Source: Escherichia coli (GTDB lineage Bacteria; Pseudomonadota; Gammaproteobacteria; Enterobacterales; Enterobacteriaceae). Taken from it: 64,000 nucleotides of DNA. The position numbers and the translations under genes were made by a program. Below are positions 61,036-61,198 of this stretch, one piece after another. Position 1 is the first letter of the stretch, and every line of letters starts with the position of its first letter. The DNA lies in assembly GCF_002854065.1 (NCBI RefSeq), contig NZ_CP024147.1; one strand, given 5' to 3'. A model generated the notes under the pieces. That model saw nothing but the letters and a program-made list of their open reading frames with translations, had not been told where the DNA came from and did no database searches.

Positions 61036-61046
61036 TTACCCGATGT

Positions 61047-61071
61047 GCCTGATGCGCCCCGCTCATCAGGC
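61047..61071. repeat. REP-like palindrome
   Basis: GCCTGATGCGCCCCGCTCATCAGGC in the bglA-gcvP spacer. Confidence 0.6.
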
Positions 61072-61154
61072 CTGGCGCTCCTGTCATATATTGAACTCCA
61101 GGATTTTATATTTACGCTTCATCCGAGACACAAAGCGCACTTTATTAACAAGCT

Positions 61155-61173
61155 AAAAAGGCGCCGAAGCGCC
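61155..61173 (-). terminator. Intrinsic terminator downstream of gcvP
   Basis: Stem GGCGC/GCGCC with 4-nt loop; 5-nt U-run on the minus strand, shorter T-run on the plus strand. Confidence 0.65.
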
Positions 61174-61198
61174 TTTAGAAGATAGTCGAACCAGTAAA

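Follow-up and report, generated by a model that had tools for sequence, protein, structure and literature searches.

The window, a stretch of 64,000 nucleotides of Escherichia coli DNA, ends with two convergent genes, bglA and gcvP, which encode a 6-phospho-beta-glucosidase and glycine dehydrogenase, respectively, and flank a spacer of exactly 163 bp that contains no gene (Table 1). The initial annotation had delimited this gap at the same two positions, described it as free of genes and placed a REP-like palindrome and the gcvP terminator inside it. All of this was borne out: the only open reading frames (ORFs) there are 46-48 amino acids long and are not kept across the sub-haplotypes of the short allele, the REP pattern matches once where no match is expected, and the terminator lies on the minus strand. 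The translation of bglA runs without an internal stop, and the gene is also annotated by RefSeq at the corresponding locus of strain TR01, where positions 60536-61698 of the window recur with 100% identity.

Table 1. Features of the bglA-gcvP spacer and its surroundings in the window, and loci of the transporter allele in other genomes.
Feature	Position	Strand	Description
bglA, 6-phospho-beta-glucosidase	59602-61035	+	477 codons plus TAA (61033-61035); intact
Spacer, empty (ygfF-less) slot allele	61036-61198		Contiguous short form found in ~43-44% of complete E. coli genomes
Z2-type REP palindrome, intact	61047-61072		GCCTGATGCGCCCCGCTCATCAGGCC; starts 11 nt past the bglA stop
L-like BIME inner motif	61073-61110		…CATATATTGAAC…GGATTTTATA; colinear with the N96 BIME inner motif
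Y-type REP relic, one arm	61111-61127		TTTACGCTTCATCCGAG; other arm deleted
Terminator-side flank	61130-61154		Common to every allele type
gcvP intrinsic terminator (predicted)	61155-61176	-	GGCGC-UUCG-GCGCC stem-loop followed by UUUUU; stem extendable to 8 bp
gcvP, glycine dehydrogenase	61199-64000	-	3' 2,802 nt; stop codon 61199-61201; 5' end past the window edge
Transporter allele in other genomes	SWHEFF_68 L093:4830-6224; Salmonella L094:3546-4941; also L096		

On the gcvP side, a GC-rich hairpin followed by a U run begins around 24 nt past the stop codon and is predicted to act as a Rho-independent terminator (-12.7 kcal/mol, z -3.2). It is present in both the MFE and the centroid fold of the whole spacer, and it has been conserved in Salmonella, Citrobacter sp. 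FP75, E. albertii and every E. coli allele examined. A simple promoter/terminator scanner did not report it, probably because the stem extension uses part of the U run; a hairpin that the scanner reported as a terminator at 61239-61253 lies within the coding region and was disregarded.

On the bglA side lies a REP. REPs are imperfect extragenic palindromes of about 25-35 nt with the arms GCC(G/T)GATG … CATC(A/C)GGC, which occur in multiple copies, typically at the 3' ends of genes. The palindrome behind bglA fits the pattern GCCTGATGCGNNNNGCTNATCAGGCC exactly (0 matches in 100 shuffles) and is a Z2-type REP by its arms, its extragenic 3' location and its multiple copies. Folding of either strand gives a hairpin of about -16 kcal/mol, and 23 of 28 positions agree with the Z2 REP in the intact BIME of strain N96. 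The 64-kb window contains three REP-like palindromes (starting at 901, 58374 and 61047) versus none in 50 shuffles; the other two are located at 901-923 and, in canonical form, at 58374-58405 between ygfZ and trhA (yqfA).

The initial annotation had expected a dehydrogenase gene, ygfF, between bglA and gcvP in K-12, and this gene order was confirmed in C600 and MG1655. In both, a ygfF of 744 bp lies on the gcvP strand within a bglA-gcvP spacer of 1,066 bp; in the K-12 derivative C600, bglA is followed by 56 bp and then ygfF, and 266 bp lie between the ygfF start and the gcvP stop. Alignment of the spacer to K-12 and other E. coli genomes, which had been proposed as a check, thus returned a K-12 spacer that contains the gene and not the same 163 bp. 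The homology between window and K-12 stops 2 nt past the bglA stop codon and restarts near the gcvP terminator, and the shared part on the gcvP side extends back to ~61130 when E. albertii is used as a guide. The difference is a replacement and no clean indel, with ~96-115 bp in the window standing against ~1,020 bp in K-12, where the replaced segment comprises a hairpin after bglA, ygfF with its upstream region and GC-rich repeats. The window has the same flanking genes in the same orientation as the K-12 arrangement (b2901-b2903), together with the gcvP terminator and a hairpin 11 nt past the bglA stop, whereas it lacks ygfF, the ygfF promoter region and the GC-rich HPGQ repeats. Searches of the spacer with blastn-short and blastx against K-12 ygfF and YgfF detected no remnant of the gene above chance.

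The K-12 spacer between ygfF and gcvP (L001:2801-3066) contains a GC-rich palindromic repeat of ~140 bp (CCCTCGCCCC…GGGGAGAGGG…), which corresponds to the hairpin/G-quadruplex (HPGQ) elements 32 and 33 (PMC5100583). Since this repeat is missing in the N96-type ygfF allele and in all outgroups examined, it is a later insertion. The product of ygfF has been placed in the SDR63C subgroup of the short-chain dehydrogenases (PMC12506659), and the purified protein shows glucose 1-dehydrogenase activity in vitro (PMC10645960).

From the Z2 REP to the Y relic, the spacer resembles a decayed BIME. The N96 allele, whose ygfF is 93.8% identical to that of K-12, contains an intact BIME between gcvP and ygfF, arranged as terminator hairpin, flank, Z2 REP, inner motif, Y REP, inverted flank and then the hairpin again. 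The spacer is colinear with this element. Its inner part aligned to the Z2-L-Y BIME of N96 with a score of 11.5 compared with 7.3±1.3 for shuffles (reached by 13 of 1,000), which is suggestive when taken alone and stronger together with the flanking matches. The L-like motif is also colinear with the relic of the transporter alleles of Salmonella and E. coli described below, which reads …TTCAATATAT…. In the alignment with the N96 Y REP, the Y relic TTTACGCTTCATCCGAG is matched to TTCACGCCGCATCCGGC and a gap spans the missing arm; Salmonella, E. coli SWHEFF_68 and E. albertii still show both arms of this REP. A consensus of the BIME inner motif gave no match in the window at up to three mismatches, and the BIME reading therefore rests on the alignment to real alleles. 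Like the known REP and BIME elements of E. coli, the spacer element is an extragenic imperfect palindrome with the arms GCCTGATG…CATCAGGC at a gene 3' end between convergent genes, and an inner motif and an oppositely oriented second REP, half of which survives, appear to come after it. It differs from them in its decayed state, with a Y REP that has lost one arm and a divergent inner motif.

This repeat region has been rearranged in other genomes as well. The gcvP terminator hairpin is duplicated on either side of an intact BIME in N96 (L089:1645-1877) and in the unclassified Escherichia GCA_004323655.1 (L091:2596-3000), and in the latter the unit of hairpin and BIME occurs twice in tandem. 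In E. coli 2017-02-2CC, the bridge-RNA recombinase element IS621 (IS110 family) interrupts the Z2 REP in the ygfF-gcvP BIME (L090:1777-2757). IS621 is known to target REPs (PMC1525189), and the insertion in 2017-02-2CC fits this preference.

The empty allele is common. Of 5,426 complete E. coli genomes, 3,057 have ygfF, MG1655 included, and ~44% are without it. A 1,163-bp query spanning the spacer matched 5,401 genomes over at least 80% of its length; among 40 evenly spaced rows of the resulting ranking, rows 1-17 contained the short contiguous spacer and rows 18-39 ygfF. This sample agrees with a frequency of ~43-44% for the empty allele and ~56% for ygfF, and the former was also obtained by subtraction (5,426 - 3,057 - 18 genomes, the last number being those that bear the transporter island). 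An assembly artefact as the cause of the short spacer is ruled out because the same spacer recurs in hundreds of independent complete genomes. In 819 genomes, RefSeq has no annotation under the spacer stretch.

The short allele comprises at least two sub-haplotypes, which are ~85% identical across the AT-rich middle. Going by strain names, we take it to be present in O157:H7, O145:H28, APEC O2:K1:H4 and O78:H4, and the ygfF allele in K-12, O111:H8 and O121. The last 20 kb of the window are 100% identical to strains CUWW06 and 100416. Strain TR01 was ruled out as the source of the window, as there are 197 mismatches over 34.4 kb despite the local identity over 1,163 bp. The similarity between TR01 and the window is patchy, with 0 to 21 mismatches per kb over positions 29592-64000, a pattern that suggests recombination mosaicism; TR01 is labelled O157:H7 and is ~1.5% diverged in this region from a typical O157 genome (strain 319).

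A third allele was found in 17 of the 5,426 E. coli genomes, and a search for the island returned one additional partial copy. In these genomes, the slot contains a gene annotated as 'transporter', which belongs to the outer-membrane family PF13557 (Phenol_MetA_deg) and lies in an AT-rich segment of 1.2 kb. The gene is intact in Z0117EC0005 (297 amino acids) and interrupted by an in-frame stop in SWHEFF_68. Salmonella enterica has the same gene in the order gcvT-gcvH-gcvP-transporter-bglA-yqfB-yqfA-ygfZ. Beside gcvP, the window has the terminator, its flank and the Y-L-Z2 relic in the same order as this Salmonella locus, and differs from it in lacking the AT-rich 1.2-kb segment with the gene for the 297-amino-acid outer-membrane protein. 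In E. albertii, no ygfF was found in the 324 nt between gcvP and the contig end; this tail matches the 17 E. coli genomes weakly, and an E. albertii protein belongs to the same 90% protein cluster as the Salmonella transporter. The E. albertii slot thus probably holds the PF13557 gene. In E. coli WB61 (L095:1-1665), a deletion has removed the 3' end of gcvP and joined the rest to the final 120 nt of the transporter gene, and this strain probably lacks a functional P protein of the glycine cleavage system.

The ancestral state of the slot was addressed by a scan for the C-terminus of GcvP with one genome per species, followed by tblastn on the loci among the matches listed. The matches listed included few close relatives and none from E. 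fergusonii, E. marmotae or Salmonella. At least six of these species have ygfF directly downstream of gcvP, namely Citrobacter werkmanii, Citrobacter sp. FP75, Enterobacter cloacae, Superficieibacter electus, Rahnella bruchi and Enterobacter sp. Ag1. In both Citrobacter species and in Superficieibacter, a convergent bglA follows within 0.5 kb, and Citrobacter sp. FP75 has a ribosome-binding site and the start codon of ygfF no more than ~20 nt beyond the gcvP terminator. An unclassified Escherichia outside E. coli has the order gcvP-ygfF-bglA-yqfB-yqfA. The G+C content of ygfF is 55.0%, compared with 50.9% and 56.3% for the flanking genes. Given the same position in the outgroups and a G+C content like that of its neighbours, ygfF appears to be ancestral to the slot.

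The initial annotation had left it open whether this strain lacks ygfF or K-12 gained it. K-12 has the gene, the window has none, and together with the outgroup synteny this supports the first option. Very probably, ygfF was lost by deletion in an ancestor of the window lineage, and the spacer represents a gene-less allele of the slot that retains the terminator and a decayed BIME. The loss is read from synteny because the spacer shows neither a ygfF remnant nor a scar. A point against this reading is that the close relatives E. albertii and Salmonella also lack ygfF at the slot. Outside Escherichia, an independent loss was observed in Enterobacter sp. Bisph1 (L007:6751-7040), where an internal deletion leaves only the two ends of ygfF; this decay indicates that ygfF is dispensable.

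How the slot was emptied is a separate question from whether it is empty. Beyond the terminator, the window aligns best to the transporter allele (z 14-17): 26 nt from the terminator U run through the flank are identical to SWHEFF_68, and the Y-L-Z2 elements follow in the same order from gcvP. The BIME of the ygfF-bearing N96, read from the second hairpin, aligns almost equally well (z 12.8), and the K-12 spacer fails to align (z -1.4). From these alignments, we infer that the empty allele is a deletion derivative of a BIME-bearing allele, of which the transporter allele is the closest. As the non-terminator part of the spacer is most like an allele with a different gene, the route of the ygfF loss may have been indirect: the PF13557 gene would have replaced ygfF and would later have been deleted from just beyond the Z2 REP to 2 nt past the bglA stop. 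The ranking of the alignments, including the failure of the K-12 allele, speaks for this order of events, as does a 7-nt match (CGGGTAA) at the bglA-side junction, and WB61 demonstrates that deletions from the transporter allele do occur. However, the close score of the N96 BIME points to a ygfF-bearing source almost as well, and the events may have occurred in the reverse order, with the transporter island being inserted into an already empty allele. The junction matches, CGGGTAA with the transporter allele and CATCG with the K-12 allele, are not long enough to discriminate and were rejected as evidence for the deletion route. We therefore regard the detour via the PF13557 gene as a serious candidate to which we would give slightly less than an even chance.

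A broader reading would treat the slot as a long-lived polymorphism of three states (ygfF, PF13557 channel or empty) in Salmonella, E. albertii and E. coli, which crosses species boundaries by homologous recombination via the conserved flanking genes and may owe its persistence to selection and not to drift. It draws on the finding that the transporter island of SWHEFF_68 is 96.0% identical to that of Salmonella, and thus nearer to it than the 3' end of gcvP (91.8%) or bglA (87.2%); an island more similar than its flanks is a hint of exchange between the genera. We consider this reading speculative and rather unlikely as a whole.

The deletion of an ancestral ygfF has also to be weighed against the opposite polarity, according to which the short spacer came first and horizontal transfer brought ygfF into the K-12 lineage. 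The absence of ygfF from the site in E. albertii and Salmonella would fit such a gain, and the extra HPGQ repeats between ygfF and gcvP in K-12 show that the region has been remodelled. However, the gene occupies the same position and orientation in the at least six other enterobacterial species and in the Escherichia outside E. coli, and two classes of ygfF alleles, which differ by 6% of their nucleotides, share the same slot within E. coli. In addition, the G+C content of ygfF is unremarkable, and the nearest YgfF proteins outside Escherichia are at most 83-85% identical, which gives no sign of a recent import or a recent donor. A gain in K-12 is therefore very improbable. Least probable of all is that the spacer encodes a small protein or small RNA of its own. 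In its favour, two ORFs of 46-48 amino acids overlap the spacer and the minus strand folds better than shuffles (z -3.25), but the terminator and REP hairpins account for the fold signal, breaks or frameshifts disrupt the ORFs in the O157/B2 sub-haplotype, PGAP annotates nothing in the spacer, an Rfam scan of 60500-61800 gave no match at E<=1 and a promoter scan of the spacer found no sigma-70-like site.

With loss of an ancestral ygfF as the preferred reading, the history and present function of the locus can be outlined as follows. ygfF would originally have been located directly after the gcvP terminator, and K-12 still has it in this slot. An ancestral deletion, one endpoint of which presumably lay in or at a REP-type palindrome, would have removed the gene, and the empty allele now segregates in E. 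coli at the frequency given above. The transcripts of gcvTHP are expected to end at the gcvP terminator, and the hairpin of the Z2 REP likely forms the 3' structure of the bglA mRNA. This proposal is based on the stabilisation of upstream mRNA by REPs. REPs located within ~15 nt of a stop codon reportedly cause ribosomes to stall and thereby reduce expression of the gene ahead of them (Liang, Rudd and Deutscher, 2015, Mol Cell). Since the K-12 hairpin likewise stands 11 nt past the bglA stop, no regulatory difference between the alleles is expected on the bglA side. The only clear functional consequence of the empty allele is the absence of YgfF.

The locus is thus an ordinary accessory-gene polymorphism at a repeat-rich intergenic site, which is already visible in public annotation, and the three states of the slot, together with its sharing between E. 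coli, Salmonella and E. albertii, are a small curiosity. For the strain analysed here, the bookkeeping is settled: it lacks ygfF like nearly half of the sequenced E. coli, and K-12 retains the ancestral gene. YgfF is dispensable in nature, which tempers claims of a core metabolic role for this dehydrogenase. Furthermore, the slot illustrates in a small space how gene content turns over and alleles are exchanged between species at intergenic sites rich in REPs and BIMEs.
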